Assembly: GCA_022710975.1 (NCBI GenBank)
Contig: JAKLGA010000009.1
Coordinates: 181,547 to 245,546 of the forward strand
Reading direction: 5' to 3'
Origin: Myxococcota bacterium
GTDB lineage: Bacteria; Myxococcota; B64-G9
Length of the DNA stretch: 64,000 nt
Every line of letters starts with the position of its first letter. Within the stretch, counting starts at the first letter, position 1. Shown piece after piece: positions 1,270-62,055 of this stretch. The notes under the pieces were generated by a model. That model did no database searches, was not told the DNA's origin, and saw nothing but the letters and a program-made list of their open reading frames with translations. A program made the translations under genes and the position numbers.

Positions 1270-1378
1270 GCCCGGCCCACCCCCCTGGCCGCCCTCCCCG
1301 GGGGAGGGTGGGCGCTCCGCCCCGTTTCTGCTAGAATCCTCTCGACTCTCCGGTGGACCCGGACCCTTGGAGGTGACC

Positions 1379-4300: not shown

Positions 4301-4522
4301 CTGATCGGGCTCATCGACCTCATCGGCGACGGGCTCGAGGTGCTGCTGACCGACACGCTCATGGAGATGCTGGGGGGCGGCGCGCTGGCCACCATCCCGC
4401 TGCCGGAGATCGATCTCAGCGCGGCGCTGCCCACGCTGCCGCCGGGCACGGTCATCGCGCTCGATCCGCAGCAGGTCACCCGGCAGGGTGGCAACACCAT
4501 CATCAGCGGCGATCTGCGCTAG
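1379..4522 (+). CDS. Secreted or lipoprotein cysteine-rich repeat protein. About 25 repeats of the [18 protein letters not shown] Myxococcus-type repeat, followed by a roughly 580-aa C-terminal domain.
   Basis: GGAGG lies 5 nt before the ATG at 1379; the ORF tool started at a TTG at 1367. Signal peptide LALALLCAAFALGSLGC (lipobox-like). Repeat consensus DGNxCTxDxC....GC recurs through roughly residues 50-470. GC3-rich. Confidence 0.8.
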   Translation: MSLRRNADRSARFRPLALALLCAAFALGSLGCSDSGGLPECMNGLDCDDGDPCNLDRCDPVEGCVHRPGSPEEVCDDQDACTTDTCDPVTGCAHADTSAACDDGNPCTADSCDPAAGCLSDGTDLAGPCDDGNPCTAGDACQGDRAGTCRGHEFVDADCDDGNPCTRDLCDLELGCRHDGTGERGPCDDLSVCTTDDVCQGDAAGTCRGTDLGLERCDDGDPCTADTCDPLLDCQHASEGVTAACDDGDPCTSMDACQGDADGTCLGTVPTSCDDANTCTLDSCDPVAGCVHDGTGVVDGCDDKNVCTSGDVCHGDAAGTCAGVFQPSSACDDSNVCTVDTCDPVQGCVHDGTDISRACSDGDPCTTGELCQGDAAGTCGGGGPTDCADLNPCTADACDPAVGCVHDGAGILTACDDLSLCTQDDACQGDAAGTCSGAPVSCDDGNACTEDICEPLEGCRSDLMANKDCVPNIEVDYPPRGATLQGALGDPVVTTTGHVWSGAGPITSFRINGADVAVAADGSFSQPVQAMTGGNTLVYEAEDALGTYRKRVQAFLWSDRYLKPDILILKSGMVDPGMGIWLSQEILDDGDHSLPPDDLATIFELVLADLDIGSFIDPSTPIASEAGFDIYVTGLTYASATANLTAINGGMRIDAALNTIHGDLYFDCTEWYCELAGGDGGGDIAIDSITISADVLLSVAADHTLVVTVANPVTSINNLDVSADDGWTNFLLSIVETFIRDSLVADLEAELNSQLTGQLAPMLQDALSALAFNESFDLPRLDGSGEVISVNLVTDFSYTSFHPGGGAIGLRAVGYTVDAVPYDNLGVPGRAGCGSGVQTLVVPGAFPFELSLADDTLNSLFFAAWNGGLMEFPVPPELLGDIDFAQYGITNMSMSLSAMLAPTATDCWPDGQLRIFIGDLSLRASFQFAGLPVDLVLWATATMGLQVTAENGEIAIAITQIDAIETQLEVQQDSLIGLIDLIGDGLEVLLTDTLMEMLGGGALATIPLPEIDLSAALPTLPPGTVIALDPQQVTRQGGNTIISGDLR

Positions 4523-39700: not shown

Positions 39701-42700
39701 TCAGCTGCAGTAGCCGTACTCCCAGGTGTTGTAGTATTCCCAGCAGCCGTACACGTACGAGTAGCACTCCGTGCCGCAGACGTACTGGCCGGAGCTCGTG
39801 TCGCACTCGCAGATCTGGTCGTAGTCGCAGTCCGCCAGGCCAGCGGGGCACTGGCACACCCCGCCCACGCAGATCTGGTTGTAGGAGCACAGCGGGCTGC
39901 CGGTGCAGCCGCCCACGGAGCAGTGGTCGCTTATCGTGCAGGCGTCGCCGTCGTCGCAGGGGGAGGCGTTGGGGGGGTTGGCGCAGCCGCCGCCGGCCGG
40001 CCAGCACTCGTCGTCGGTGCAGGGGTTGCCGTCGTCGCAGCTCAGCTTCGAGCCGCTCTGGCAGCAGGCCTCGCCCGCGGCGCCGTTGCAGGTGTCGCCC
40101 GCGGTGCAGGCGTCGCCGTCGGAGCAGGCGGCGGTGCTGGGCACGTAGCTGCAGCCCGAGCCGTCGTTGCAGTAGTCGTCCGAGCAGGGGTTGCCGTCGT
40201 CGCAGCTCGCGAGCAGGGCGCCGCCGCTGCAGGAGGTGCCCTGGCAGGTCTGCGCGTACCAGGCCAGACCGCTGCAGTAGGTCGAGCCGCACGGGAGGCC
40301 GTCGCCCGCCGCCGGGTAGCTGCAGCCGGCGCCCCCGTCGCAGCTGTCCGCGGTGCAGGGGTTGGGGTCGCCGCAGACCTGGATGATCTCGCTCCCGCCG
40401 CACTGCCCGCTCTGGCAGGTCTGGCGGCGCCACTCCAGCCCGCTGCAGGAGCGCGCTCCGCACTCCATCCCGTCGCTCACCGGGGGATGGACACAGCCTG
40501 AGCCCGGGTCGCACACGTCGCTGGTGCAGGGGTTCCAGTCCTCGCAGTCCGGCGCCACGCCGGCGACGCAGCTCGGGCTCTCGCACCGCTCCGGCCCGTT
40601 GCAGGCGTTGCCGTCGTCGCATTGCCAGTCCGAGGTGCAGGACTGGCAGACGGTGTCCGCACCATCGACGGCCCCGTCGCAGTCGTTGTCCAGCCCGTCC
40701 GCGCAGGTGGCCGAGCCCAGCGGTCCCTCGGTCGCTCCCGGGTGGATGGTGTTGTTCTGGTCATCGCAGTCCTGGCCGCAGGGCGGCGGGGCGTGGCCGT
40801 CGGAGTCGGCGTCGATGGCCTGGCCGGCGCAGGTCCCGCCGGCGCAGGCGTCGCCGCTGGTGCAGGCGTCGAGGTCGTCGCACGGCGCCGTGTTGTGGCT
40901 GTGCGTGCAGCCGTTCGCGTCGCAGCCGTCGTCGGTGCAGGGATCGCCGTCGTCGCAGGCGCTCGCATCCGGGCTGAAGACGCAGCCCGCGCCCTGGTCG
41001 CAGGTGTCGAGGGTGCAGGGGTCGCCGTCGTCGCAGGTCCGCGGCGTGCCCTGGCAGCTCGCGCCGACGCAGGTGTCGCCCTCGGTGCAGGCGTTGCCGT
41101 CGTCGCAGCCCCCGCCGGTGGAGACGTGGGAGCAGCCCTGCTGGGGATCGCAGAGATCGTCGGTGCAGGGGTTGCCGTCGTCGCAGCGCTCCAGGCACGA
41201 GCGGCAGGCCTGCGGGGAGCCCAGCGCGGTTTCGCAGCCCGGGCTGGCGTCGCAGTCGCCCTAGCCGGGCTCGCAGGCGCAGGCGCTGAGCTGGCAGGTC
41301 GCGCGCGAGCCGCAGACCCGCTCGCAGGAGCCGCAGTGCTGCGGGTCGTTGCTCAGATCGACGCAGGCGGTGCCGCAGCAGAAGCTGGCCTGGGTCCCGG
41401 GGCAGTCCGGCCCCGTGCCGCCGCAGGCGCAGGTCGCTCCGGTGCAGAGCTCGCCGCTGTCGCAGGTGGTGCCGTTGCAGGCCTGGCCGTTGCAGAGGCC
41501 GCCCTCGCAGCCGTAGGGGCAGTCCTCGGGGACCTCCGTGTACTGGCAGACGCCGTCCGCGCACTGGCCGGGGACCTCGAAGCGGACGCGCGCGTCGCCG
41601 CGGCACTCGGCCGGCGGCGGCTGGTCGCAGCCCTGGAGCTGTCCGTGGCACTCCTCGGCCTGGCAGACATCGCCCTGGGTGCAGGCGTCCCCGTCCGTGC
41701 AATCCTGGCCCCCGGGCGCCCAGGCGGGCTGCAGCGCGGCCGGATCGAACAGGCAGCGGAAGGTGCCCCAGGCGCACTGACGCGCCTGGCACTGGAGGGC
41801 CTCGGTGCAGATTTCACGCGGGCAGCACAGGCCATCCTCGCAGCGCTGCCAGTCCGCGCACTCCACACCCACGCAGAGCCTGGGCGCGCACACCCCCCCG
41901 GCGCACACCTCGCCCGCGCCGCAGGGCGTCGCCCCGCAGGCCAGCGGGTAGCAGGCGCCGGCCGCGCACTCCTCGCCCGAGGCGCAGGTCACCTGGGCGC
42001 ACGAACGCGGGACGCAGGCGCCCTCGAAACAGACCTCGAGGCCTTCGACGCAGTCCAGCTCCGGGCAGTCCGCCTCCAGGCACCAGCCGTTGGCGCATTC
42101 GAGGGCGCCGCAGTCGACCTGGCCGCAGCTGCGCTGGACGCAGGCGCCGTCCACGCAGATCTCGTCGTGGCCGCTGCAGAGCTCCTCGGTGCACTCGCTC
42201 GGGTAGCAGCGACCGCCGCTGCAGACCTGGCCGGTCGGGCAGACCACCTCAGCGCACGAGCGATCGCGGCACTCGTCCTCGATGCACACCTCGCCGTAGC
42301 CGGCGCACAGCCTGGTGGGGCAGTCCCTGGGGTAGCACCTGCCCGCGGCGCAGACCTGGCCGGTCGGGCACTGGACCGCGAGGCAGGAGGCCGGGGTGCA
42401 ATCCTCCTGCACGCACACCTCGCCCAGCCCGGGGCAGTTGCGCCAGTCGCAGGCCGACGGGTAGCAGTGCCCGTTGGCGCAGCCCTCGCCCGGGGGGCAC
42501 TCCACCCACAGGCAGGCCACCTCCTGGCAGGTCTCTCCGAGGCAGACGTGGCCGGGCGGGCAGCTCCGATCCGTGCAGCTCGTGGGCAGGCACTCGCCCC
42601 GGACCACGATCCCGTCCGGGCAGCTCCCGATCTCGCCGGAGTCGCAGCCGGCCGGACCCAGCACCAGGGACAGGCACGCGACCGCGAGCATGACGCGCAG

Positions 42701-42706
42701 TGCCAT
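39701..42706 (-). pseudogene. Cysteine-rich repeat lipoprotein, paralog of 42829..47589. It is interrupted by an in-frame amber codon at 41261-41263 and is otherwise a continuous frame of about 1000 codons.
   Basis: The same frame (coordinates congruent mod 3) runs on both sides of the TAG. ...CACEPG*GDCDASPGCETALGS aligns to the paralog's ...GCQPGFGDCTLDPGCETTLGS, with the TAG at the F position. There are no ATG/GTG/TTG codons between the TAG and 40558, which is why the ORF table splits the gene. GAGGAG RBS before the second ATG (MALRVMLAVACLSLVLGPAGC signal). Confidence 0.6.
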
Positions 42707-42828
42707 CGCTCCGCTCCTCGTCTGCATGACGACGGGGTCATTCTAGCCCAGATCGGCGGAATCCGCGATGCGAGGGCAGGAGCCAGGCCCGGAGCCAGGC
42801 CCGGCGGCGGTCCCGGGCGAACCGCGCC

Positions 42829-45800
42829 TCAGTAGTAGCAGGTGATGTAGCCGCTGCAGCCCGGGTAGTAGTACTCGTCGTAGCAGCAGTAGTAGTAGTT
42901 CGTGTCGCACTCGCAGATCTGGTCGTAGTCGCAGTCCTCGAGGCCGGCCGGGCACTGGCACACCCCGCCCACGCAGATCTGGTTGTAGGAGCACAGCGGG
43001 CTGCCGGTGCAGTTGCCCCCGGAGCAGTAGTCGCCGGTGGTGCAAGGGTCGCCGTCGTCGCACGGACCGGGCTTGGCGGGGTAGGCGCAGCCGGTGGCCG
43101 GGTAGCAGTCGTCGTAGGTGCAGATGTTCCCGTCGTTGCAGGGCGGCGTCACGTTGGGGTCGAACTGCGGGTGGCAGCAGGCCTCGCCCTGGGCGCCATT
43201 GCAGTAGTCGTTGGCCCCGGTGCAGGCGTCGCCGTCGGAACAGGGGTTGGTGTTGGGCACGTAGCTGCAGCCCGAGCCGCCGTTGCAGTAGTCGGTGGAG
43301 CACACGTTGGCGTCGTTGCAGTTCTGGATGAGCGCGCTCGACGAGCAGGCGCCCGACGTGCAGGTCTGGCGGCGCCACTCCAGGCCGCTGCAGTAGCGCG
43401 AGCCGCACTCGGTGCCGTTGGCGACGTTCGCGTTCGTGCAGCCGCTGGCGGCCGCGCAGGAGTCGTTGGTGCACTGCTGGCTGTCGTTACAGTTCTGGAT
43501 GAGCGCGCTCGACGAGCAGGCGCCCGACGTGCAGGTCTGGCGGCGCCACTCCAGGGCGTTGCAGTAGCGCGAGCCGCACTCGGTGCCGTTGGCGACGTTC
43601 GCGTTCGTGCAGCCGCTGGCGGCCGCGCAGGAGTCGCTGGTGCACTCGATGCCGTCGTTGCAGTTCTGCAGCCCCATGTCGCCGGAGCAGGTGCCGCTCT
43701 GGCAGGTGTGGGCGTACCACGCCAGGCCGATGCAGTAGCGCGCGCCGCACTCGGTACCGTTGGCGACGTTCGCGTTCGTGCAGCCGCTGGCGGCCGCGCA
43801 GGAGTCGTTGGTGCACTGCTGGCCGTCGTTGCAGTTCTGCACCAGGGCGTTGCCGCTGCAGGCGCCGCTCACGCAGGACTGCATGCGCCACTCCAGGCCG
43901 TTGCAGTAGCGCGAGCCGCACTCGGTGCCGTTGGAGGCGTTGGGGTTGGAGCAGCCGCTGGCGGCGGCGCACGAGTCGGTGGTGCACTGGTTGGCGTCGT
44001 TGCAGTTCTGCTGCAGCGCGCTCGACGAGCAGGCGCCGGACAGGCAGGTCTGGCGGCGCCACTCGAGGCCGTTGCAGAAGCGCGCGCCGCACTCGATGCC
44101 GTTGGCCACCGCGACGTTGGAACAGCCGCTGGCCGCGTTGCAGGTGTCGCTGGTGCACTCCTGGCCGTCGTTGCAGTTCTGCTGCAGCGCGGAGCCCGAG
44201 CAGGAGCCGGACTGGCAGGTCTGGCGGCGCCACTCGAGCGAGCTGCAGAAACGCGCGCCGCACTCGATGCCGTTGGCCACCGCGACGTTGGAGCAGCCGC
44301 TGGCCGCGTTGCAGGTGTCGCTGGTGCACTCCTGGCCGTCGTTGCAGTTCTGCTGCAGCGCGGAGCCCGAGCAGGAGCCGGACTGGCAGGTGTGGCGGCG
44401 CCACTCGAGGGAGCTGCAGTAGCGCGCGCCGCACTCGATGCCGTTGGCCACCGCGACGTTGGTGCAGCCGCTGGCGGCGTTGCAGGAGTCGCTGGTGCAG
44501 TCCTCGATGTCGTTGCAGTTCTGTTGGAGCGCGTTGCCCGTGCAGGCGCCGGACTGGCAGGTCTGCCGGCGCCACTCCAGGCCGTTGCAGTAACGCGCGC
44601 CGCACTCGGTGCCGTTGGCGACCGCCGAGTTGGTGCAGCCGCTGGCGGCCGCGCAGGCGTCGCTGGTGCACGCCTGGCCGTCGTTGCAGTCCTGGGCGAC
44701 GGCGGTGCCCGAGCAGGTGCCCGACTGGCAGGTCTGCATGCGCCACTCCAGGCCGTTGCAGGAGCGCGAGCCGCACTCGGTGCCGTTGGGGAAGCTCGGG
44801 TGGCTGCAGCCCGTGGCGGCCGAGCAGGCGTCGTTGGTGCACTGGTTGGCGTCCGCGCAGTTCTCGAGCAGGCTGTTGCCGGTGCACTGACCCGCCTGGC
44901 AGGTCGGCACCCGCCACTCGAGCGCGTTGCATACCCGCGCGCCGCACTCGGTGCCGTTGGCCAGGTTCACGTGCTGGCAGCCCAGGGCCTGATCGCAGGA
45001 GTCCGTGGTGCAAGGGTTGCCGTCGTCGCAGTCGAGCGCTGTGCCCGAGGTGCAGTTGGGCGGGTTGCAGCCCTCGACGCCGTTGCAGGCGTTGCCGTCG
45101 TCGCACTGCTCGGGCAGGGTGCAGCTCTGGCAGGTCGAGTCCGCGCCGTCGGTGGTGCCGTCGCAGTCGTTGTCCAGGCCGTCCGAGCAGACCTGCGCGC
45201 CGAGCGGGCCCTCTGGCATGCCGGGGTTCACGTTCGGGTTGTCGTCCAGGCAGTCGCCGCCGCAGGGCGGCGGCTGGTGGTCGTCGCCGTCGGCGTCGAT
45301 GAGGGTGCCCGCGCAGGCGCCGCCCGCGCAGGTGTCCCCCGCGGTGCAGGCGTCGCCGTCGTTGCAGGGGGCGGTGTTGTTGGCGTGGGTGCAGCCGCTG
45401 GCCGAATTGCAGCCGTCCGTGGTGCAGGGGTTGCCGTCGTCGCAGTTCCTGGGCGCGCCGCTGCAGGCGGCGCCGGAGCACGCGTCGTTGATGGTGCACT
45501 CGTCGGCGTCGTCGCAGGCGTCGGCGTTCGGGTTGTAGGTGCAGCCCGTGGCCGGGTCGCAGCCGTCGTCGGTGCAGTCGTTGCCGTCCGTGCAGGTCCG
45601 GGGCGCCCCGGCCTGGCACGCGCCGCCGGAGCAGGCGTCGCCCTGGGTGCACTCGTTGCTGTCGCTGCACGGACCCGTGTTGTTCGCGTGGGTGCACTCG
45701 CCGGTGCCCGGCTCGCAGCCGTCGTCGGTGCACGGGTTGCCGTCGTCGCAGCTCGAGCCGCCGGTGAACACGCACACGCCGCCCTGGCAGTGGTCGCCCG

Positions 45801-47589
45801 TGGTGCAGCCGTCGTTGTCGCTGCAGGCGGCCGCGTCGTCGTTCACGTGCTGGCACTGGCCGCTGGCCGGGTTGCAGTCGTCCTGGGTGCAGGCGTTGAG
45901 ATCGTTGCAGTCCTTGGGAACTCCCTGGCAGGTGCCGCCCGAGCACGTGTCGCTGTCGGTGCAGGCGCTGGCGTCGTCGCAGGCCCCGGTGTTGGGGGCG
46001 TGCTGGCAGCCCAGCTGCGCGTCGCAGCTGTCGTCGGTGCAGGGGTTGTTGTCCTCGCAGCTCTCCTGGCAATCGCGGCAGAAGGTCAGGCTGCCGAGCG
46101 TGGTCTCGCAGCCCGGGTCGAGGGTGCAGTCGCCGAAGCCGGGCTGGCACCCGCAGATCTGGCCAGCGCAGCTCCCGTTCGGGCCGCACAGGTTGTCGCA
46201 GCCGCCGCAGTTCTGGCTGTCCTGGGTCAGGTCAACGCAGACCGCGCCGCAGCAGAAGCTGGAGGTGTCGCCGGCGCAGTCCGGGCCGGTGCCGCCGCAG
46301 CGGCACTCCGTCCCCACGCACTGCTCGTTGGGAGAGCACTGGATCCCGTTGCACATCGCGCCGATGCACTGCCCGTCGGTGCAACCCTCGGGGCAGTCCT
46401 CGACCACCTCGGCGTACTGGCAGCTCCCGTCCACGCACGTCCCCGGGGAGCGGAAGCTCACGCGCTGGTCGCCCCGGCACTCGGGCTGCGGCGGCTGGTT
46501 GCAGGCCAGCGGCGTCCCCCGGCACTCATCCTGGGCGCACACGTCTCCCTGGGTGCAGCCGTCGCTGTCGGTGCAGTCCTCCCCCTCGGTCGCCCACACG
46601 GTCTGCTGCGTGGCCGGGTCGTACTGGCAGCGGAAGTTCCCCCAGCCGCAGGCGCTCGTGCTGCACTGCAACCCCGGGGTGCAGGTCTCAGGTGGGCAGC
46701 AGGCGCCGGCCTCGCATCGCTGCCAGGTGGCGCAGTCCACCCCCACGCACAGGCGCAGCTCGCAGGCTCCGCCGGCGCAGACCTCGCCCGACGGGCAGGG
46801 GGTGTCTCCGCAGGTGAGCGGGTAGCAGGCACCAGCCGCGCACGCCTCGTCGGCGCCGCAGGTCACGTGGGCGCACGAGCGGGGGACACACGTCCCCTCG
46901 AAGCAGATCTCCAGCCCGTCCAGGCAGTCCTGGCCGGACTCGGTACAGTCCGCCGGGAAGCACCAGCCGTTGGCGCACTGCAGGTCGCCGCAGTCGACGT
47001 TGGCGCAGGTGCGCTCGGAGCACACGCCGTCGACGCACACCTCGTTGTAGCCGTGGCAGTTCTCCAGGCCGCACTCGGTCGGGTAGCAGCGCCCGCCGGA
47101 GCAGGTCTGCCCGGCGGGGCAGGTCACCCCGGCGCAGGAGCGTTCCTGGCACTCGTCCTCGATGCACACCTCGCCGTAGCCGGCGCACACCTTGGTGGGG
47201 CAGTCCTTGGGGTAGCATCGGCCCGCGGCGCAGACCTGGCCGGCCGGGCACTGGACCGCGATGCAGGAGGCCGGGGTGCACTCCTCCTCCACGCACACCT
47301 CGCCCAGGCCGGGGCAGTTGCGCCAGTTGCAGGCCGAGGGGTAGCAGACCCCATTGGCGCAGCCCTCTCCCGGGGGACACTCCACCCACAGGCAGGCCAC
47401 TTCCTGGCAGATCCCGCCCAGGCAGACCGAGCCTGGCGGGCAGGTCCGATCCTCGCACGTCGTGGGCAGGCACTGCCCGTTGACCACCACGCCGTCAGGG
47501 CACTGGGACGAGATGGTGCCGGGATCGCAGCTGCCCAGCCCGAGGCACGGCGCGAGGAACATGAGGTAGCGAAGGCGGGACTGGCTCAT
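42829..47589 (-). CDS. Giant cysteine-rich repeat lipoprotein (1586 aa): a Cys-rich N-terminal domain, TIGR02232-type DGNxCT repeats, about ten 56-aa tandem repeats, and a Tyr-rich C-terminus
   Basis: GAGGAG RBS before the ATG. Signal MFLAPCLGLGSC. Repeat unit NGTECGSRYCNGLEWRRQTCQSGACSGNALQQNCNDGQQCTNDSCAAASGCTNANVA. C-terminus CECDTNYYYCCYDEYYYPGCSGYITCYY. Confidence 0.8.
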   Translation of the reverse strand: MSQSRLRYLMFLAPCLGLGSCDPGTISSQCPDGVVVNGQCLPTTCEDRTCPPGSVCLGGICQEVACLWVECPPGEGCANGVCYPSACNWRNCPGLGEVCVEEECTPASCIAVQCPAGQVCAAGRCYPKDCPTKVCAGYGEVCIEDECQERSCAGVTCPAGQTCSGGRCYPTECGLENCHGYNEVCVDGVCSERTCANVDCGDLQCANGWCFPADCTESGQDCLDGLEICFEGTCVPRSCAHVTCGADEACAAGACYPLTCGDTPCPSGEVCAGGACELRLCVGVDCATWQRCEAGACCPPETCTPGLQCSTSACGWGNFRCQYDPATQQTVWATEGEDCTDSDGCTQGDVCAQDECRGTPLACNQPPQPECRGDQRVSFRSPGTCVDGSCQYAEVVEDCPEGCTDGQCIGAMCNGIQCSPNEQCVGTECRCGGTGPDCAGDTSSFCCGAVCVDLTQDSQNCGGCDNLCGPNGSCAGQICGCQPGFGDCTLDPGCETTLGSLTFCRDCQESCEDNNPCTDDSCDAQLGCQHAPNTGACDDASACTDSDTCSGGTCQGVPKDCNDLNACTQDDCNPASGQCQHVNDDAAACSDNDGCTTGDHCQGGVCVFTGGSSCDDGNPCTDDGCEPGTGECTHANNTGPCSDSNECTQGDACSGGACQAGAPRTCTDGNDCTDDGCDPATGCTYNPNADACDDADECTINDACSGAACSGAPRNCDDGNPCTTDGCNSASGCTHANNTAPCNDGDACTAGDTCAGGACAGTLIDADGDDHQPPPCGGDCLDDNPNVNPGMPEGPLGAQVCSDGLDNDCDGTTDGADSTCQSCTLPEQCDDGNACNGVEGCNPPNCTSGTALDCDDGNPCTTDSCDQALGCQHVNLANGTECGARVCNALEWRVPTCQAGQCTGNSLLENCADANQCTNDACSAATGCSHPSFPNGTECGSRSCNGLEWRMQTCQSGTCSGTAVAQDCNDGQACTSDACAAASGCTNSAVANGTECGARYCNGLEWRRQTCQSGACTGNALQQNCNDIEDCTSDSCNAASGCTNVAVANGIECGARYCSSLEWRRHTCQSGSCSGSALQQNCNDGQECTSDTCNAASGCSNVAVANGIECGARFCSSLEWRRQTCQSGSCSGSALQQNCNDGQECTSDTCNAASGCSNVAVANGIECGARFCNGLEWRRQTCLSGACSSSALQQNCNDANQCTTDSCAAASGCSNPNASNGTECGSRYCNGLEWRMQSCVSGACSGNALVQNCNDGQQCTNDSCAAASGCTNANVANGTECGARYCIGLAWYAHTCQSGTCSGDMGLQNCNDGIECTSDSCAAASGCTNANVANGTECGSRYCNALEWRRQTCTSGACSSSALIQNCNDSQQCTNDSCAAASGCTNANVANGTECGSRYCSGLEWRRQTCTSGACSSSALIQNCNDANVCSTDYCNGGSGCSYVPNTNPCSDGDACTGANDYCNGAQGEACCHPQFDPNVTPPCNDGNICTYDDCYPATGCAYPAKPGPCDDGDPCTTGDYCSGGNCTGSPLCSYNQICVGGVCQCPAGLEDCDYDQICECDTNYYYCCYDEYYYPGCSGYITCYY
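43250..44950. repeat. Tandem array of about ten 168-bp near-identical repeats inside the CDS 42829..47589
   Basis: Blocks such as GCACTCGGTGCCGTTGGCGACGTTCGCGTTCGTGCAGCCGCTGGCGGCCGCGCAGGAGTCGTTGGTGCACTGCTGGC recur with few substitutions. Each encodes a 56-aa Cys-rich module. Confidence 0.8.
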
Positions 47590-47757
47590 GTCCGGTCTCC
47601 TCTCGGCATACCGATCTGCTGGGGAGATTCTAACCTGTTTACGAGCATTTGAACAGCGCGGCCGGGCAGCTCGGCCGGGGAGCGCGCGCGCCGCCTTCGC
47701 CCTTGAACCAGCCTGGGGCTCGGGCTATCCTCAGAGGCCGATTCCCTGGAGGTCTGC

Positions 47758-52038: not shown

Positions 52039-55000
52039 TCAGCGCGCCCTGCGCCGGAGCACCAGCGCCAGGGCCAGCCCCAGGCCGAGCAGGCCGGCCT
52101 CCAGGGGCGAGCTCGAGGCTCCGCACACGCAGCCGCCGCCGCTCACGTGTGTCAGGTCCGGATCGCTGGCGCCGCCGTCGCCCCCGTCCTGTCCGGGCTG
52201 GCACACCCCGGCCTGGCATGTCCCGTCCGGACAGGCCGTCCCCTCCGGGAGCGCTGCGTGCCGGCAGGCGCCGTCGGCCGCTTCGCAGCCGTCCTCGGTG
52301 CACGGGTTGCCGTCGTCGCAGGCGAGCGGGGTCCCGGCGCACACGCCGGCCAGGCAGGCGTCGGCCGAGGTGCAGCCGTCGCCGTCGTCGCAGGGGGTGG
52401 CGTCGGGCCGGTCCACCAGGGAGCAGGCGCCCGTCGCCGGGTCGCAGGCCGCCTGGCGGCAGTCCGTGTCGGCGGTGGGATCGCACACCACCACGGTCGC
52501 GGGATCCACCACGCAGGCGGGGCTCTGGCAGACCAGGGTGCCGTTGCACAGGTCCGCGTCCTCGAAGGGCGCGCAGTCCGCGTCCGCGCTGCACTGGCAG
52601 GTGTTGGCTCCGGGCTGGCAGGCGCCGGCCGCGCAGGTGTCGCCCCCGGTGCAGGGGTTGCCGTCGTCGCAGGGGGCGCTGTTCGGGGAGAAGGCGCAGC
52701 CCGCGGCGGGCTCGCAGCCGTCGTCGGTGCAGGGGTTGGCGTCGTCGCAGACGAGCGGGGCACCCACCTGGCAGCCGAGGAGCGGATCGCAGCTCTCCAC
52801 GCCGTTGCAGGTGTCGCCATCGTCGCAGGCGAGCGGGGTGCCGGTGCACACGCCGGCCAGGCAGGCGTCGGCCGAGGTGCAGCCGTCGCCGTCGTCGCAG
52901 GGGGTGGCGTCGGGCCGGTCCACCAGGGAGCAGGCGCCCGTCGCCGGGTCGCAGGCCGCCTGGCGGCAGTCCGTGTCGGCGGTGGGATCGCACACCACCA
53001 CGGTCGCGGGATCCACCACGCAGGCGGGGCTCTGGCAGACCAGGGTGCCGTTGCACAGGTCCGCGTCCTCGAAGGGCGCGCAGTCCGCGTCCGCGCTGCA
53101 CTGGCAGGTGTTGGCTCCGGGCTGGCAGGCGCCGGCCGCGCAGGTGTCGCCCCCGGTGCAGGGGTTGCCGTCGTCGCAGGGGGCGCTGTTCGGGGAGAAG
53201 GCGCAGCCCGCGGCGGGCTCGCAGCCGTCGTCGGTGCAGGGGTTGGCGTCGTCGCAGACGAGCGGGGTGCCCACCTGGCAGCCGAGGAGCGGGTCGCAGC
53301 TCTCGGCGCCGGTGCAGGCGTCGCCGTCGTCGCAGGCGAGCGGGGTGCCGGCCACGCAGCCCGAGGCCGGATCGCAGCCCTCGAGGCCGTCGCAGACGTC
53401 GCCGTCGTCGCAGATGAGCGGGGTGCCCGGGACGCAGCCCGAGGCCGGGTCGCAGCCCTCGAGGCCGTCGCAGGCGTCGCCGTCGTCGCAGACGAGCGGG
53501 GTGCCCGGCTGGCAGGCGCCGCCGGCGCACGCCTCGTCGCCGTTGCACGTGTCGCCGTCCGGGCAGGGGAGCGTGTTGGGCTCGAAGGCGCAGCCCGTGG
53601 CCGGGACGCAGGAGTCCGTGGTGCAGACGTTGCCGTCGTCGCAGGAGAGCGGCGTGCCGGCCTGGCAGCTCCCGGCGGCGCAGGTCTCGTCGCCGTTGCA
53701 GGCGTTGCCGTCGTCGCAGTCCAGGTCCTGCGCGCACACCGAGCACGAGGGCTGCTCCGCGTCCACGTTCCCGTCGCAGTCGTTGTCCAGGCCGTCGCTG
53801 CAGGTCGGATCGCCCAGGCCGCCCTCGAACATCCCGGGGTTGACGCTGACGTTGCCGTCGTCGCAGTCCACGCCGCCGCAGGCGAAGGGCGCGTAGCCGT
53901 CGTCGTCCGCGTCCAGCGGCGCGCCCTGGCAGGCGCCGAGCGCGCAGGTGTCGCCCTCGGAGCAGGGGTCGCCGTCGTCGCATGGATCGGCGTTGCCGGT
54001 GTAAGCGCAGCCCGTGGCCGGGGCGCACGAGTCCGTGGTGCAGGCGTTGCCGTCGTCGCAGGCGAGCGGCGTGCCCGGCTGGCAGCTCCCGCCGGCGCAG
54101 ACCTCGGCGCCGTTGCAGAGGTCGCCGTCCGCGCAGGAGAGGGTGTTGTCCACTAGCACGCAGCCCGTGAACGGGTCGCACGAGTCCGTGGTGCAGAGGT
54201 TGCCGTCGTCGCAGGCGAGCGGTGTGCCGGCCTGGCAGGTGCCGGCGGAGCAGGCCTCGTCCCCGTTGCAGAGATCGCCGTCCGCGCAGGAGAGGGTGTT
54301 GGGGGCATAGCTGCAGCCCGTGGCCGGGGCGCAGGAGTCCGTGGTGCAGGAGTTGCCGTCGTCGCAGACGAGCGGGGTGCCGGCCTGGCAGGTGCCGGCC
54401 GCGCAGGCCTCGCTGCCGTTGCACTGATCGCCGTCCGAGCAGGAGACCGTGTTGGGGACATTGCTGCAGCCCGTGGCCGGGGCGCAGGAGTCCGAGGTGC
54501 AGACGTTGCCGTCATTGCAGCTCAGCGGTGTGCCGGCCTGGCAGGTGCCGGCGGAGCAGGCCTCGTCCCCGTTGCAGAGATCGCCGTCCGCGCAGGAGAG
54601 GGTGTTGGGGGCATAGCTGCAGCCCGTGGCCGGGGCGCAGGAGTCCGTGGTGCAGGAGTTGCCGTCGTCGCAGACCAGCGGGGCGCCGGCCTGGCACGAG
54701 CCCGCGGAGCAGGCCTCGTTGCCGTTGCAGAGGTCGCCGTCCGAGCAGGGCAGCGCGTTGTTGGCGAAGGCGCAGCCTGTGGCCGGGACGCAGGAGTCGG
54801 TGGTGCAGACGTTGCCGTCGTTGCAGGTGAGCGGCGTGCCGGCCTGGCAGGTGCCGCCGGAGCAGACCTCGGCGCCATCGCAGAGGTCGCCGTCCGCGCA
54901 GGAGGCCGTGTTGGGGACGAAGCTGCAGCCCGTGGCCGGGACGCAGGAGTCCGAGGTGCAGACGTTGCCGTCGTTGCAGGTCAGGGGGGTGCCGGCCTGG

Positions 55001-58000
55001 CAGGCGCCGCCGGCGCAGACCTCGCTGCCGTTGCACAAGTTGCCATCCGCGCAGGAGGCCGTGTTGGGGACGAAGCTGCAGCCCGTGGCCGGGACGCAGG
55101 AGTCGGTGGTGCAGACGTTGCCGTCGCTGCAGGTCAGGGGGGTGCCGGCCTGGCAGGCGCCGCCGGCGCAGACCTCGCTGCCGTTGCACAAGTTGCCGTC
55201 CGCGCACGAGGCCGTGTTGGGGACGAAGCTGCAGCCCGTGGCCGGGACGCAGGAGTCCGTGGTGCAGACGTTGCCGTCGTTGCAGACGAGCGGGGTGCCA
55301 GACTGGCAGGTGCCGCCGGAGCAGACCTCGTCGCCGTCGCAGAGGTCGGCGTCCGCGCAGGAGGCCGTGTTGGGGACGAAGCTGCAGCCCGTGGCCGGGA
55401 CGCAGGAGTCCGTGGTGCAGACGTTGCCGTCGTTGCAGGTGAGCGGCGTGCCGACCTGGCAGGTGCCGCCGGAGCAGACCTCGGCGCCATCGCAGAGGTC
55501 GCCGTCCGCGCAGGAGGCCGTGTTGGGGGCAAAGCTGCAGCCCGTGGCCGGGACGCAGGAGTCGGTGGTGCAGACGTTCCCATCGTTGCAGGTCAGGGGA
55601 GTGCCGGCCTGGCACGCGCCCGCGGCGCAGACCTCGCTGCCGTTGCACAGGTTGCCGTCGGGGCAGGGCAGGGTGTTGTTGGCGTAGGCGCAGCCCGTGG
55701 CCGGGTTGCAGGAGTCGGTGGTGCAGAGGTTGCCGTCGTCGCAGGTGAGCGGGGTGCCGGCCTCGCACGAGCCGGCGGCGCAGATCTCGTCGCCGTTGCA
55801 GGCGTTGCCGTCCGAGCAGTCGCCGTTGCCCGAGCAGACCGAGCACGACGGCTGCTCCAGGTCGGTGTTGCCGTCGCAGTCGTTGTCCAGCCCGTCGGCG
55901 CACGTGGGATCGCCCAGCCCACCCTCGAAGGCGCCGGGGTTGACGGCGGGGTCGGTGTCGTCGCAGTCCGTGCCGAGGCAGGCCAGCGGCACGTAGGTGT
56001 CGCCGTCCGCGTCCAGCGGGTCGCCCTGGCAGGTGCCGGCCGCGCAGGCGTCGGCCATGGTGCAATCGTCGGCGTCGTCGCAGGGGCCGGTGTTGGCGGG
56101 GTAGGCGCAGCCCGTGGCCGGGACGCAGGAGTCCATGGTGCAGACGTTGCCGTCGTTGCAGACGAGCGGGGTGCCGGCCTGGCACGAGCCGCCGGAGCAT
56201 GCCTCAGCGCCGTCGCAGAGGTCGCCGTCCGGGCAGGGCAGGGTGTTGTTGGCGTAGCTGCAGCCCGTGGCCGGGACGCAGGAGTCCGTGGTGCAGACGT
56301 TGCCGTCGTTGCAGACGAGCGGGGTGCCGGCCTGGCACGAGCCCGCGGAGCAGGCCTCGTTCCCGTTGCACAGGTCGCCGTCCGGGCAGGGCAGGGTGTT
56401 GTTCGCGTTGCTGCAGCCCGTGGCCGGGACGCAGGAGTCCGTGGTGCAGAGGTTGCCGTCGTTGCAGACGAGCGGGGTGCCGGCCTGGCAGGAGCCCGCG
56501 GCGCAGACCTCGTTCCCGTTGCACAGGTTCCCGTCTGGGCAGGGGACGGTGTTGTTGACGTTGCTGCAGCCCGTGGCCGGGACGCAGGAGTCCGTGGTGC
56601 AGAGGTTGCCGTCGTTGCAGGTGAGCGGCGTGCCGGCCTGGCACGAGCCCGCGGAGCAGGCCTCGTTGCCGTTGCAGAGGTCGCCGTCCGGGCAGGGCAG
56701 CGCGTTGTTGGCGTAGGCGCAGCCCGTGGCCGGGACGCAGGAGTCCGTGGTGCAGAGGTTGCCGTCGTTGCAGGTGAGCGGCGTGCCGGCCTGGCAGGAG
56801 CCCGCGGAGCAGACCTCGTTCCCGTTGCACAGGTTCCCGTCTGGGCAGGGGACGGTGTTGTTGACGTTGCTGCAGCCCGTGGCCGGGACGCAGGAGTCCG
56901 TGGTGCAGACGTTCCCGTCGTTGCAGACGAGCGGGGTGCCGGCCTGGCAGGAGCCCGCGGAGCAGACCTCGTTGCCGTTGCAGAGGTTGCCGTCCGGGCA
57001 GGGCAGGGTGTTGTTCGCGGTGCTGCAGCCCGTGGCCGGGACGCAGGAGTCCGTGGTGCAGAGGTTGCCGTCGTCGCAGACCAGCGGGGTGCCGGCCTGG
57101 CAGGAGCCCGCGGCGCAGACCTCGTTCCCGTTGCACAGGTTGCCGTCTGGGCAGGGGACGGTGTTGTTGACGTTGCTGCAGCCCGTGGCCGGGACGCAGG
57201 AGTCCGTGGTGCAGACGTTGCCGTCGTTGCAGACGAGCGGGGTGCCGGCCTGGCAGGAGCCCGCGGAGCAGACCTCGTTCCCGTTGCAGAGGTTGCCGTC
57301 CGGGCAGGGCAGGGTGTTGTTCGCGGTGCTGCAGCCCGTGGCCGGGACGCAGGAGTCCGTGGTGCAGAGGTTGCCGTCGTTGCAGACCAGCGGGGTGCCG
57401 GCCTGGCAGGAGCCCGCGGAGCAGACCTCGTTCCCGTTGCACAGGTTGCCGTCCGGGCAGGGCAGGGTGTTGTTCGCGGTGCTGCAGCCCGTGGCCGGGA
57501 CGCAGGAGTCCGTGGTGCAGAGGTTGCCGTCGTCGCAGACCAGCGGGGTGCCGGCCTGGCAGGAGCCCGCGGCGCAGACCTCGTTCCCGTTGCACAGGTT
57601 GCCGTCTGGGCAGGGGACGGTGTTGTTGACGTTGCTGCAGCCCGTGGCCGGGACGCAGGAGTCCGTGGTGCAGACGTTGCCGTCGTTGCAGACGAGCGGG
57701 GTGCCGGCCTGGCAGGAGCCCGCGGAGCAGACCTCGTTCCCGTTGCAGAGGTTGCCGTCCGGGCAGGGCAGGGTGTTGTTCGCGGTGCTGCAGCCCGTGG
57801 CCGGGACGCAGGAGTCCGTGGTGCAGACGTTCCCGTCGTTGCAGACCAGCGGGGTGCCGGCCTGGCAGGAGCCCGCGGCGCAGACCTCGTTCCCGTTGCA
57901 CAGGTTCCCGTCCGGGCAGGGCAGGGTGTTGGTGACGTTGCTGCAGCCCGTGGCCGGGACGCAGGAGTCCGTGGTGCAGAGGTTGCCGTCGTCGCAGACC

Positions 58001-60759
58001 AGCGGGGTGCCGGGCAGGCAGCTGCCTGTGGCGACCACGCAGGTCTCCGCACCGTTGCAGGCGTCCCCGTCGTCGCAGTCCGGATCGCCGGTACAGGTGG
58101 CCGGCTCCTTGATCCAGATCTGGAGGTTGTCCAGCCGGCAGCCGGCCTGGTTGACGGTGTAGTCGGTGTACGAGCGGAAGCGGAAGTAGACGGTGTCGTA
58201 GCCGATCAGCGGGGTGAGGTTCACCTCCTGCGCGCCGCTGGCGGTGCCGGTGAAGCCGGTGATGATCCGCCACTGGACGTTGTCCAGGCTGTACTCCCAG
58301 ATCAACCAGTCATAGTTCTGCTCGTAGGCGCAGGACACCAGGTCGAAGCTGATCGAGGCGGACACCGCGTCGCTCAGATCGACCCCGGCCGAGAAGGTGG
58401 CCGAGGAGCGGTTGTTGTCTCGGTAGTTGGCCCCCGGGCTGTCGTCCAGCACCCCGCCCTGCACGGCCCAGGTGGGGGTCAGGGTCCAGTTGGTCGCGTT
58501 GCCGAAGGTCTCGTCGACGACCAGCGTGTCGGGCGCGTCGCCGGCCGCGGTGACGAGGATGTCGTCGAGGTACCACCCGTCCCGGCGGGTGCTGGCGTTC
58601 GACGACAGCCAGAAACGGAGCTGGACCCGCTGGCCGGTCGCGAGGATCGTGCCGGCCCACTCGTGCCAGGTGGTGTTGGTGCCGGTGACCTGATCCACGC
58701 TGGTCCAGGCCGACCAGGTGGCGCCGTCGTAGGTGCGGATCTGGATCCTGCCGTAGTCCGCGTTGGCCTGCAGATCGTAGCGCTGCCAGAAACTGAGCCG
58801 GATCAGCTGATCGTTCGCCACGATCTCGGGCGAGACCAGGTAGAGGTTGGCGTTGTTCGGATAGTTGCCCCCGGGGCTGTCCGTCCAGCTGTGGGTCGGG
58901 CTGTGGCTCTGAGCGGTGACCTGGCCCCAGTCTCCGGTCCAGCCGTTGAGCCCCCCCTCGACGTCGTCGTCGAGCAGGACGGTCTCGGCGGGTGTGGTGA
59001 TGACCACCACGTTCGACAGGGCGCTCCGGTTGCCGGCGTTGTCCACCACCTCGAGGCCGAAGCGGTAGGTCGTCCCCGGCGAGAGGCCGCCGATGGTGAA
59101 GTTGTCCACCTGCCCGACCGGGGACGGGGTCCACAGCCCGAGGATCGGCTCGGCCGTGGCGTAGTCGAAGGTGGCGCCCTCGGCCACCCGCAGGTCGTAG
59201 TAGTTGGCCTGCCCCGCGTTGCCGTCGTCGCCCGTGGCGGTCGTGCGCAGGAGCACCCGCCGGCTCTGGGTGAGGTGCACGCCGAGGGTGGGCGTGGCCG
59301 GGGCGGTCGCGTCTTCCTCGACCAGGTTGAAGACGTTGAGGTGCCCACCGGTGACCGACAGGCCGGCCAGCGAGGCCCAGCGCTGGCTGCGATCCATGAG
59401 CCGCTGGCGGATGGCGCTCACCCGCTGGACCTGGGTCATGCCCGCCCAGCCGGTGATCAGGTTCGGCGCCAGGCCGTACACGATGGCCGCCGCGCCCGAG
59501 GCGTGGGGCGCGGCCATCGAGGTCCCGCTCCACGACAGCCAGACGCTGTTGGCGGTGTCCCACATGCAGATCTGGTAGAGGCTCTCGGGGTAGCCGGTCA
59601 GGATGTTCGGGGTGGTGGAGACGATCTCCTCGCCCGGGGCGTAGAGGTGGACCGTGTTCAGGCCGTAGTTGGAGAACAGCGAGCCGTCGCCCCAGGCGCT
59701 GGAGGCGCCGACCGAGATGACGTTCTCGTAGGGGTAGTTGCCCGGGTAGGAGGGCGTGGTGTCGTTGTCGGTGCCGTCGTTGCCCGACGCGACCACGAAG
59801 ACCACACCCTGGTCACGCGCCGCGGCGATCGCCGCGGCCAGGCTCGCGTCGTAGGCGCCGCCACCCCAGCTGTTGTTGAGCACCTTGGCGCCGTTGGTGA
59901 CGCCGTAGTTGATCGCCGCGATGGCGTTGGCGGTGCTGCCGCCGGTCGGCCCGATGAACCGCAGCGCCATGATCTGGACGTTGGTCGTGGTGCCGTAGAC
60001 GCCGATCGAGTTGTGGATCGCGGCGATGGCCCCGGCCACGTGGGTGCCGTGGCTGTCCTCGTCCATCGGGTTCGTGTCGTTCGAGTAGAAGTCGTAGCCG
60101 AGGCCCGGCCACATCACCGCGGCCAGGTCCGGGTGGGTGTAGTCCACGCCGGAGTCGATGACCCCGACGATGATCGTGCTCGGGGTGAAGCCGCGCCGGG
60201 CGATCTCGTCGTTGGCCTCCGGGGTGTCCATGTCCATGTCGGCCACGCGCGGATCCGGGTTGTACAGGCCGGCGTTCCCCTGGAAGGGCGCGTTGCCGCC
60301 CAGGTTCCGGTGGGCCCAGGCCATGTTGAAGTAGGGATCGCTGGGGACCTCGCTGGGGAAGTAGAGGTAGTTGGGCTGGGCGGCCTCCACCCCGGGTTGC
60401 TTGGTCAGCTCCGCGATGGCCTGCTCGACGTCCACGCCGCTGGTCAGGCGCAGCAGGTAGGTGCGGTTGAGCGTGGATTCCGGCGCGGACTCGAACCGCA
60501 GACGTCGCTCGACGCGGTGGCCCAGCGCCCCGGCCATGGCCTGCGCGGCACCCTCCTCCTGCCCTGCTCGCAGGGTGACCAGGACCTCGTCCACCACCCA
60601 GGCCGCCTTCGTTCCGGCGCGCCGCGGCGAGGGCTTCTGGACGGCCAGCTCCTCCGTGGAGACGCCGGGGCCCGGCTCCCCCGCGCCGTCGCACGACGGG
60701 CCGACCAGGGCGAGCAGGACGAGGGCCGCGGACGGGATCGCGATGGCTTTCGAGGGCAT
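52039..60759 (-). CDS. Giant (2906 aa) secreted subtilisin-like S8 peptidase, then an FN3-like domain, two jelly-roll-like domains, about 50 tandem 36-aa cysteine-rich repeats, and a MYXO-CTERM tail
   Basis: GGAGG RBS 6 nt before the ATG at 60759. Signal [18 protein letters not shown]8 catalytic blocks [13 protein letters not shown] (Asp), DSHGTHVAG (His), NNSWGG (oxyanion Asn) and [11 protein letters not shown] (Ser). Repeats are of the [51 protein letters not shown] type. C-terminus [33 protein letters not shown]. Confidence 0.85.
52150..58040. repeat. Tandem array of about 50 repeats of 108 bp (36 aa) inside the S8 giant gene; many adjacent copies are identical at the nucleotide level
   Basis: The unit ...GGTGCAGACGTTGCCGTCGTTGCAGACGAGCGGGGTGCCGGCCTGGCAGGAGCCCGCGGAGCAGACCTCGTTCCCGTTGCAGAGGTTGCCGTCCGGGCAGGGCAGGGTGTTGTTCGCGGTGCTGCAGCCCGTGGCCGGGACGCAGGAGTCCGT recurs almost exactly between about 56.2 and 58.0 kb. 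More diverged copies run down to about 52.2 kb. Confidence 0.85.
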
Positions 60760-60879
60760 GCAGAACCTCCGGCGCTCGAGGCATTCCACCCGACGACCCC
60801 CTGAGGCTAACCCATGGCGATCTTTGTCACCAGGGGGAAGGGTGTGCAGCGGTATCGGGCTGTGGTAGGTCTGGTGTCC

Positions 60880-62055
60880 ATGGACGCGCCGCGCCTGAAT
60901 GCGTACCAGAGGGACGCCCACCTGACCTCGCTGCGCGCCCGCGCGGTCGCCTGCGCGCCCGCGCAGGGCGGCTTCCTGGTCGAGCTCGAGGACACGCTCT
61001 TCTACCCCGAGGGCGGGGGTCAGCCCGCCGACGCCGGCACCCTCGACGGGCAGGCGCTGCTCGGCCTGCAGAAGACGGCCGACGGGCGGGTGCTGCACCT
61101 CCTGGCCGAGGCCGTCGAGGTCGGGCGGGAGGTGGCGCTGGAGCTCGACTGGGCGCGGCGCCTCGATCACATGCAGCAGCACTCCGCCCAGCACATCCTG
61201 ACCGCGCTGGCGCTGGCCGAGTTCGGCTGGCCCACCACGGCCTTCCACCTGGGGCCGGACCGCTCCGACCTCGAGCTGGGTCAGGACGGGCTCGACCTGG
61301 CGGCGCTGGCCGGCCTCCAGGCGCGGGCGAACGAGATCGTCCGCCAGGCCCGCCCGGTGCGCACCCGCTGGGTGAGCGCGGAGGAGTTCCAGACCCTGCC
61401 GGTGCGCTCCCGCATCCTGCCCGAGGGATTCGCCGGCCCCTACCGGCTGGTGGAGATCGAGGGCGTGGATCTCAACACCTGCGGCGGGACCCACGTGGCC
61501 TCCACCGCCGAGCTGCAGGCCGTCGCCCTCACGGGCACCGAGCGGCTGAGGGGGGGCACGCGGGTGTTCTTCCTGGCCGGTGGGCGGGTGCTGCGCGAGC
61601 TCGGCCAGGCGGTCGCGCACCAGCGCGCGCTCGGGGAGCTGCTGTCCTGCCCGCCGGCGGATCACCCGGCGGCCGTCTCGCGCCTGCAGGCCGAGCTCCG
61701 CGAGGCGGGCGTCCAGCGCCGCCAGCTCCAGTCCGAGCTGGCCCTGCACCTGGCGCGGGAGCTGTCCCGCGGCCCGCAGCCGGCCAGCCTGCACCGGCCC
61801 GAGGCCGACATGGCCTGCCTGCAGGCCGTGGCCCGGGCCTTCCTGGAGCTGTGTCCGCAGGGGCTCGCCCTGCTGACGGGCAAGGGCCTGTTCGTGCTGG
61901 CCGGCCCGGCGGACAGGCTGAAGGCCCTCGGTCCCCAGGTGGCCGCGGCGCTCGGCGGCCGGGGCGGGGGCGGGGCGGGGCTCTACCAGGGCAAGGCCGC
62001 GGAGCTCTCCCCGGCCGCCCGCGAGCGCGCGCTGGCGACGCTCAGGTCGAGCTGA
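60880..62055 (+). CDS. AlaX-L type alanyl-tRNA editing protein (tRNA_SAD domain)
   Basis: FYPEGGGQPADAG at the N-terminus, then HSAQHIL and CGGTHV zinc-binding motifs. Start is chosen at MDAPRLNAYQRD by family alignment. The ORF table begins at 60814 with no RBS, so the start is uncertain. Confidence 0.7.
   Translation: MDAPRLNAYQRDAHLTSLRARAVACAPAQGGFLVELEDTLFYPEGGGQPADAGTLDGQALLGLQKTADGRVLHLLAEAVEVGREVALELDWARRLDHMQQHSAQHILTALALAEFGWPTTAFHLGPDRSDLELGQDGLDLAALAGLQARANEIVRQARPVRTRWVSAEEFQTLPVRSRILPEGFAGPYRLVEIEGVDLNTCGGTHVASTAELQAVALTGTERLRGGTRVFFLAGGRVLRELGQAVAHQRALGELLSCPPADHPAAVSRLQAELREAGVQRRQLQSELALHLARELSRGPQPASLHRPEADMACLQAVARAFLELCPQGLALLTGKGLFVLAGPADRLKALGPQVAAALGGRGGGGAGLYQGKAAELSPAARERALATLRSS

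Follow-up and report, generated by a model that had tools for sequence, protein, structure and literature searches.

The stretch of DNA analyzed here (64,000 nt at full length; hereafter, the window) belongs to an uncultured 72% G+C Myxococcota bacterium known from wastewater or digester metagenomes; sample accession SRR4244739 is found in the literature among US wastewater samples. The minus strand of the window carries a tandem pair of long genes for putative cysteine-rich lipoproteins, which we call gene A (42706..39701) and paralog B (42829..47589). Paralog B is intact and codes for 1586 amino acids (aa). Gene A has a single amber codon (TAG, 41261..41263) inside its reading frame. In our view, this amber is most probably a genuine and recent nonsense substitution, which leaves gene A with a shortened product of 481 residues.

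The frame of gene A can be followed from ATG 42727 to the TGA at 39703..39701, a distance of 1008 codons, and translation identified the TAG at 41263..41261 as its sole internal stop. The two remaining minus-strand frames of the same region have five and three stops. Counted from ATG 42727 the amber is codon 489; counted from ATG 42706, the likely start and also the one chosen by public gene callers, it is codon 482 of 1001. The minus-strand context reads GAG CCC GGC TAG GGC GAC TGC (E P G stop G D C), and the aligned codon of paralog B is TTC (Phe), so that QPGFGDC in B is matched by EPG-stop-GDC in A. Beyond the amber, the first canonical in-frame start is a GTG at 40556..40558 (minus strand), 705 nt downstream, with no ATG, GTG or TTG sooner; gene callers take this GTG (40558) and produce a 285-residue fragment. 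The window was also scanned, with regard to frame, for stops that have strongly coding-like sequence (G+C content at third codon positions, GC3, >0.9) to either side. This returned no second in-frame stop in a real coding frame, the three further matches being on antisense frames of real genes. The initial annotation had reported a frame from 42706 to 39701 that is uninterrupted save for one TAG at 41261-41263, a Phe codon at this site in the tandem paralog, and no start for about 700 nt past the TAG. All three statements were borne out, and so was the view that the distal 1.5 kb lacks independent expression, on the basis of the 705 nt free of in-frame ATG, GTG and TTG codons.

A -10-like TAGAAT (42745..42740) and a Shine-Dalgarno AGGAG (42718..42714), the latter 7 nt ahead of ATG 42706, precede gene A on the minus strand; both are sequence matches only, and a consensus promoter scan returned nothing for them. 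The arrangement is repeated ahead of paralog B (TAGAAT at 47632..47627 and AGGAG at 47601..47597, minus strand). Judged by these matches, the duplication appears to have included the expression signals, and those of gene A (the TAGAAT, the AGGAG, the 7-nt spacing and the ATG common to A and B) appear intact. On the other side, a convergent short-chain dehydrogenase (SDR) gene (38902..39693, plus strand) lies 8 nt past the end of gene A. Gene A should therefore be the last gene in its transcript, and a nonsense codon in it would have no polar effect downstream.

The proximal open reading frame (ORF; 41264..42706, minus strand) comprises 481 codons and represents the predicted truncated product. 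Its N-terminus has a lipoprotein-type signal (MALRVMLAVACLSLVLGPAG followed by C), and then some 12 hairpin repeats, rich in disulfides and built around a CPxGxxC core. The lipobox-like ends, read from the sequence by eye, are LVLGPAG before the Cys in A, CLGLGS in B and VLTSPG in the homologous gene of a sister species discussed below; position -3 of A (Pro) is atypical. Cysteine accounts for 16% of both A and B. No Pfam family matched the N-terminal hairpin stalk of about 420 residues (the proximal 488 residues were scanned). In an AlphaFold model of the 481-residue product, based on 19 homologues, residues 30-420 form an elongated array of beta-hairpins with a predicted local distance difference test score (pLDDT) of about 90. 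A fold search of this model against PDB gave nothing significant (best E-value 1.7). The last 53 residues (429-481) have pLDDT <50, which fits a module unable to close its disulfides. The parity of cysteines in the truncated product was also considered and set aside as uninformative, the number being odd with or without the distal half.

The stalk seems to be a self-standing unit, since complete stalk-only proteins exist among the homologues: P0121 (555 aa, wholly inside its contig), P0194 and P0129. The same stalk is joined to many different C-terminal parts among homologues.

The module broken by the amber is a STIG1/MXAN_6577-like cysteine module (41183..41422, minus strand) with the pattern CC..C.DL..D..HCG.C...C, C.C..G[FWY].DC and GCE, and the stop falls just before the next Cys. 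More precisely, the amber occupies the aromatic site of the C-x-C-x-x-G-[FWY]-x-D-C motif, and a motif survey of the homologues having the module found W, F or Y at this site. The likeness to the MXAN_6577-like/STIG1-like modules of Myxococcota (CC..C.D...D..CG.C...C / C.C..G[FWY].DC / GCE) holds at the module level only: the partial match of residues 436-488 to NF041328 (NCBIfam) scores 24.7 bits against a cut-off of 100, below the curated threshold. Past the amber, the distal part (39701..41260, minus strand) has 519 sense codons plus TGA and encodes Dicty_CTDC repeats, two units of GLEWR/GLAWY type and a tail rich in Tyr, Trp and Cys. Pfam PF00526 (Dicty_CTDC) matches this half in six stretches with 107 bits, the gathering cut-off being 27. 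By this score and by its 16% cysteine the full-length protein resembles Dicty_CTDC proteins; unlike these and the MXAN_6577-like proteins, it has the 420-residue stalk without a Pfam or PDB match. Its domain content thus suggests a cysteine-rich repeat lipoprotein of Dicty_CTDC type, carried on an N-terminal stalk that is so far undescribed.

Paralog B, named 'hypothetical protein [Myxococcota bacterium]' in the public NCBI record of a metagenome-assembled genome (MAG), aligns with gene A end to end, with 66% aa identity before the stop and 64% after it. At the nucleotide level the identity of A and B is a mosaic, reaching 90-94% over A codons 68-157 and 939-968 and falling to 61-72% elsewhere, which suggests either patchy gene conversion or uneven constraint. 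Part of B consists of a tandem array (43285..44961) of 171-nt (57-aa) units, present in 9.8 copies with 83% identity. This array is one unit shorter in an ENA assembly (1529 aa instead of 1586), owing either to copy-number variation or to assembly collapse, and one NCBI MAG copy of B differs by 2 aa within the array. No close orthologue carrying the amber-site module was found: the best non-self homologues are 46-58% identical, and none of the genomic contexts of homologues P0131, P0188 and P0189 is syntenic with the window.

The amber was found repeatedly in public assemblies. The same TAG, in 100% identical DNA, is present on four separately assembled contigs, three from JGI and one from ENA. 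Ga0116155_10028642 (2.9 kb; L007) was found by a protein-guided scan of JGI metagenomes, while Ga0116153_10000034 (223 kb), Ga0209507_1000032 (319 kb) and ENA ERZ27257455 k141_835062 (304 kb), all three identical across gene A, came from a look-up of the exact product. Among the stretches retrieved, L007, L014, L015 and L018-L021 have an identical TAG, and gene calls with exactly the 481-residue product occur on eight public contigs. That the ENA assembly is a separate one is clear from its B copy, which is shorter by one 57-aa unit. These matches bear on the possibility that the true genome has a sense codon at 41261-41263 and that the TAG arose as an artefact of sequencing or assembly. In favor of an error, the region is 75% G+C, it belongs to a repeat-rich gene family, and the TAG was judged from assembled contigs. 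Nevertheless, the same base recurs on contigs of very different lengths from both JGI and ENA. Paralog confusion during assembly is implausible as well, since the 33-mer at the amber site occurs only once in the window even with three mismatches allowed and since the nucleotide identity of A and B near the amber is only 63-72%; their longest identical run, 63 nt, lies away from this site. Consensus errors, moreover, are more often indels than clean stop-creating substitutions. We consider a one-off assembly error effectively excluded, and an artefact of any kind hardly credible. Sequencing error had been one of three explanations put forward in the initial annotation, next to a very recent nonsense mutation and programmed read-through, and it now looks unlikely on account of the four contigs and the eight calls.

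The closest homologue of both halves of gene A (P0001) comes from a sister species, where it is encoded on Ga0116237_10013431 (L029), a contig syntenic with the window (DAGK, the Cys-rich gene, SDR and SpeA) whose flanks have 84-85% nucleotide identity to it. In place of the tandem pair there is a single gene (L029 1677..5855) of 1392 codons, which resembles A at both ends and B in between and is preceded by TAGGAT and GGGAG. The segment of 150-190 residues that holds the amber site of gene A is missing from it. It has, however, an amber of its own: a TAG at L029 4089-4091 (codon 805 of 1392), its sole in-frame stop, replaces the Glu of a CNGLEWRRQTC repeat (GAG>TAG). The following 690 nt contain no start codon, and the distal 587 codons are otherwise intact, with 84 of the 86 aligned cysteines kept. 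The same TAG occurs in a second JGI sample (Ga0116143_10008832, L030; TAG context at 2294), which differs from the first by three single-nucleotide polymorphisms and one compensating indel pair. The paired 1-nt indels, about 20 nt apart (L029 2655-2674 versus L030 872-891), alter about six codons in the Cys-rich gene and represent either strain variation or a local assembly difference. As a further observation, both ambers, that of gene A and that of the sister gene, create a CTAG tetranucleotide. The one in the window is formed by the amber and the preceding C. Across the 64 kb there are just 11 CTAG where 164 would be expected from base composition, an under-representation of about 15-fold.

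Taken as a whole, we put the probability at roughly 80% that gene A carries a genuine recent nonsense substitution leaving a 481-residue lipoprotein precursor, and that this is an ordinary young nonsense allele in a duplicated gene, tolerated through the intact 1586-residue paralog. The proposed sequence of events is as follows. Gene A would be the promoter-distal copy of the tandem pair of giant cysteine-rich lipoprotein genes. A single-base substitution would have turned the aromatic codon of the C-x-C-x-x-G-[FWY]-x-D-C module into TAG, so that translation would end after 481 residues. The ancestral codon was most likely TGG (Trp) or TAC (Tyr), to go by the family: each is one step away from TAG and W, F and Y all occur at the site, whereas the TTC of the paralog would need two changes. 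The product is expected to keep the signal peptide, the lipobox Cys and the entire N-terminal hairpin stalk, to end in a broken, probably unfolded module, and to lose the Dicty_CTDC repeats together with the aromatic C-terminal tail. Given the 705 nt without a start codon, the distal 1.5 kb would be silent apart from basal read-through. We thus infer that the truncated protein is made and anchored and that the distal part is probably untranslated. With paralog B intact and equipped with its own upstream signals, and with no gene following downstream on that strand, the loss would be tolerated.

The state of the distal half bears on the age of the mutation. Within the 519 codons past the amber there is neither a second stop nor a frameshift, and GC3 (0.96) equals that of the rest of gene A. 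The distal cysteines that align to paralog residues outside the last ~25 residues are all retained (75/75). Their codons represent about 200 non-synonymous sites, none of which has changed, and this puts a 95% upper bound of about 1.5% on neutral divergence since the loss of constraint. The synonymous distance (dS) of gene A to either B or the sister gene is about 0.4. The -10-like element and the Shine-Dalgarno sequence, both unbroken in gene A and like those of B, also agree with a young mutation. Two readings fit the distal data, a recent amber mutation and ongoing selection on the distal part. Most observed bacterial pseudogenes are young and in-frame stops are mostly short-lived, so that a young allele is the default expectation. 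In-frame stops have been described as common in bacterial genes, mostly short-lived and persisting mostly at the level of polymorphism within populations (Belinky et al. 2021, PMC7918605). Gene A resembles the young pseudogenes and nonsense alleles of that study in having a single stop in an intact homologous frame, in one lineage and without a second lesion, and in being a non-essential, duplicated surface-protein gene; it differs from them in that its allele is the sole one in several assemblies and that the syntenic gene of a sister species bears an amber of its own. In the initial annotation a very recent nonsense mutation was expected to go along with a decaying paralog. The first part is the best supported of the options, but decay is not yet visible, as there is no second lesion and the structural cysteines are kept.

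Two further comparisons were tried and not used as tests of decay. A relative-rate test with the sister gene as outgroup counted 81 lineage-specific changes in A and 27 in B for the distal part, and 11 in A and 26 in B for the proximal part; it was rejected because the sister gene is a mosaic and A has lost no cysteine. The ratio of non-synonymous to synonymous rates (dN/dS) between A and B (0.58 before the stop and 0.80 after it) is uninformative, given the strong heterogeneity between bins and a GC3 of 96%.

The same molecular event need not have been neutral. Loss of the distal, adhesin-like half might have been advantageous, through escape from phages or predators or by saving the cost of a 1000-residue disulfide-rich protein, in which case selection would have raised the nonsense allele to high frequency and the 481-residue stalk would be the functional form. 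An independent amber in the syntenic gene of the sister species, common to two slightly different strains, is what one would expect of such selection, but these two are the only events known. Likewise, all assemblies of the window species show the window allele and no other; yet these assemblies are essentially clonal, and the apparent fixation may reflect a single sampled lineage. The family itself provides some precedent, with stalk-only homologues occurring as complete genes and with highly variable C-terminal parts on a conserved N-terminal stalk. The position of the stop fits less well. It cuts into a Cys module instead of coinciding with a domain boundary, leaving about 50 residues that are predicted to be unfolded, and the sister stop is placed much further along (codon 805 of 1392), so that the two truncated products are not equivalent. 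The two independent ambers do suggest recurrent truncation of this surface protein, whether tolerated or selected. As an explanation of the amber in gene A, however, we regard selection for the short form as unlikely.

A different type of explanation would have the amber decoded. An in-frame UAG inside a long conserved frame is a feature that gene A has in common with pyrrolysine (UAG) recoding and with genes read by amber suppressor tRNAs. Unlike in such systems, the 64-kb window contains no tRNA genes, Pfam scans of the window proteins detected no pyl genes, neighboring genes end in TAG, and the paralog and relatives have an aromatic residue instead of TAG at the site. In fact, TAG terminates 4 of the 24 other confident genes of the window, including a ComM-like gene with a complete C-terminal Pfam domain. 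A change of the genetic code was rejected because these genes, with TAG as their terminator, stop where they normally should. Conversion of UAG to UGG through A-to-I editing by TadA was likewise rejected: the known bacterial target motif of TadA editing is UACG in a tRNA-like loop, while the site here is CUAGG and has no special fold.

The amber might also be read through at low efficiency, by a near-cognate tRNA or a lineage-specific suppressor. The main product would then be the short lipoprotein, accompanied by small amounts of the full-length one; such read-through would be tolerated or regulatory and would keep the distal half under selection. The distal halves of both amber genes are indeed free of further lesions and have kept their cysteines, although a short time since the mutation explains a clean distal half equally well. 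Belinky et al. (PMC7918605) argue that many in-frame stops of bacteria remain under purifying selection and may lower rather than abolish expression. The lack of conservation of the stop itself speaks against read-through: the paralog has TTC at the site, homologues have W, F or Y, and in the sister gene the segment is missing and the TAG stands at a different codon. The two ambers have no common downstream context either (TAG-GGC-GAC in the window versus TAG-TGG-CGC in the sister). The 101 nt around the TAG fold no better than shuffled sequence (z = +0.99), Rfam gave no relevant match, and within the window, as noted above, TAG is an ordinary terminator. Finally, the fact that both stops are TAG carries no signal, since TAG is expected in 40-50% of single-step nonsense mutations in these genes; this share arises because Cys TGC codons mutate to TGA, whereas TAG is reached from Gln, Glu, Trp and Tyr codons.

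The A1 protein of phage Q-beta is a minor, extended read-through product, and known cases of this kind use UGA or specific contexts, with the stop conserved among relatives. Gene A could in principle likewise yield a short major and a long minor product, but its stop lacks conservation, and neither a stimulatory context nor a structure was detected. Read-through, the third explanation considered at the outset, thus stays on the list as a very unlikely alternative for which we found no positive support. A more elaborate version would have the ambers kept as a translational bet-hedging switch, with UAG read through at low frequency or by a suppressor to give mostly the short stalk and occasionally the full adhesin. 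It would require that such switches arose independently at different codons in two sister species, and we consider it highly improbable. If read-through were confirmed, gene A would join the few bacterial cases in which an amber codon gives rise to two products, an outcome that the evidence does not favor.

Several points nonetheless count against a simple young nonsense allele. Both the short and the long product of gene A are predicted from sequence alone. A sampling site may be common to the JGI samples, one of which may have been re-assembled as Ga0209507; independent read sets are possibly as few as two, and the TAG is known from contigs. An intact distal half is equally expected from continued selection on a read-through product. 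The sister species has its own in-frame TAG, in two samples and with an undamaged distal part, and two fresh nonsense alleles at one locus are mildly above what a simple accident model would give. Finally, comparison with the sister gene gives a dN/dS of 0.41 ahead of the stop and 0.78 beyond it, values that are hard to interpret at a GC3 of 96% and with a mosaic gene history, the distal half of A being already fast-evolving.

If gene A carries a recent nonsense allele, as we favor, the locus shows how a tandemly duplicated, fast-evolving family of surface proteins may shed domains, and the sister amber marks it as a candidate site at which digester populations repeatedly lose a surface structure. 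There is a practical consequence for annotation, too. The gap after the amber has been filled with fragments of 285 or 255 aa from internal starts and with a 246-aa antisense ORF. For example, the JGI annotation of Ga0116153 has an antisense 246-aa gene at L020 4443-5183 (approximately window 40524-41264, plus strand) along with the 255-aa fragment. The fragment and antisense calls are annotation artefacts of the interruption; together with the 481-aa call, they represent pieces of, or artefacts around, one interrupted gene.

Elsewhere in the window, Dicty_CTDC repeats are not limited to the tandem pair. An intact 3251-aa ORF (52039-61794, minus strand) combines a fervidolysin-like prodomain and a subtilase S8 domain with many such repeats, and an additional intact CTDC protein is encoded at 1367-4522 (plus strand). 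A 754-aa ORF at 30923-33187 (minus strand) has the shoulder and repeat domains of major vault protein (PF11978, PF17795) and represents a bacterial MVP-like gene.

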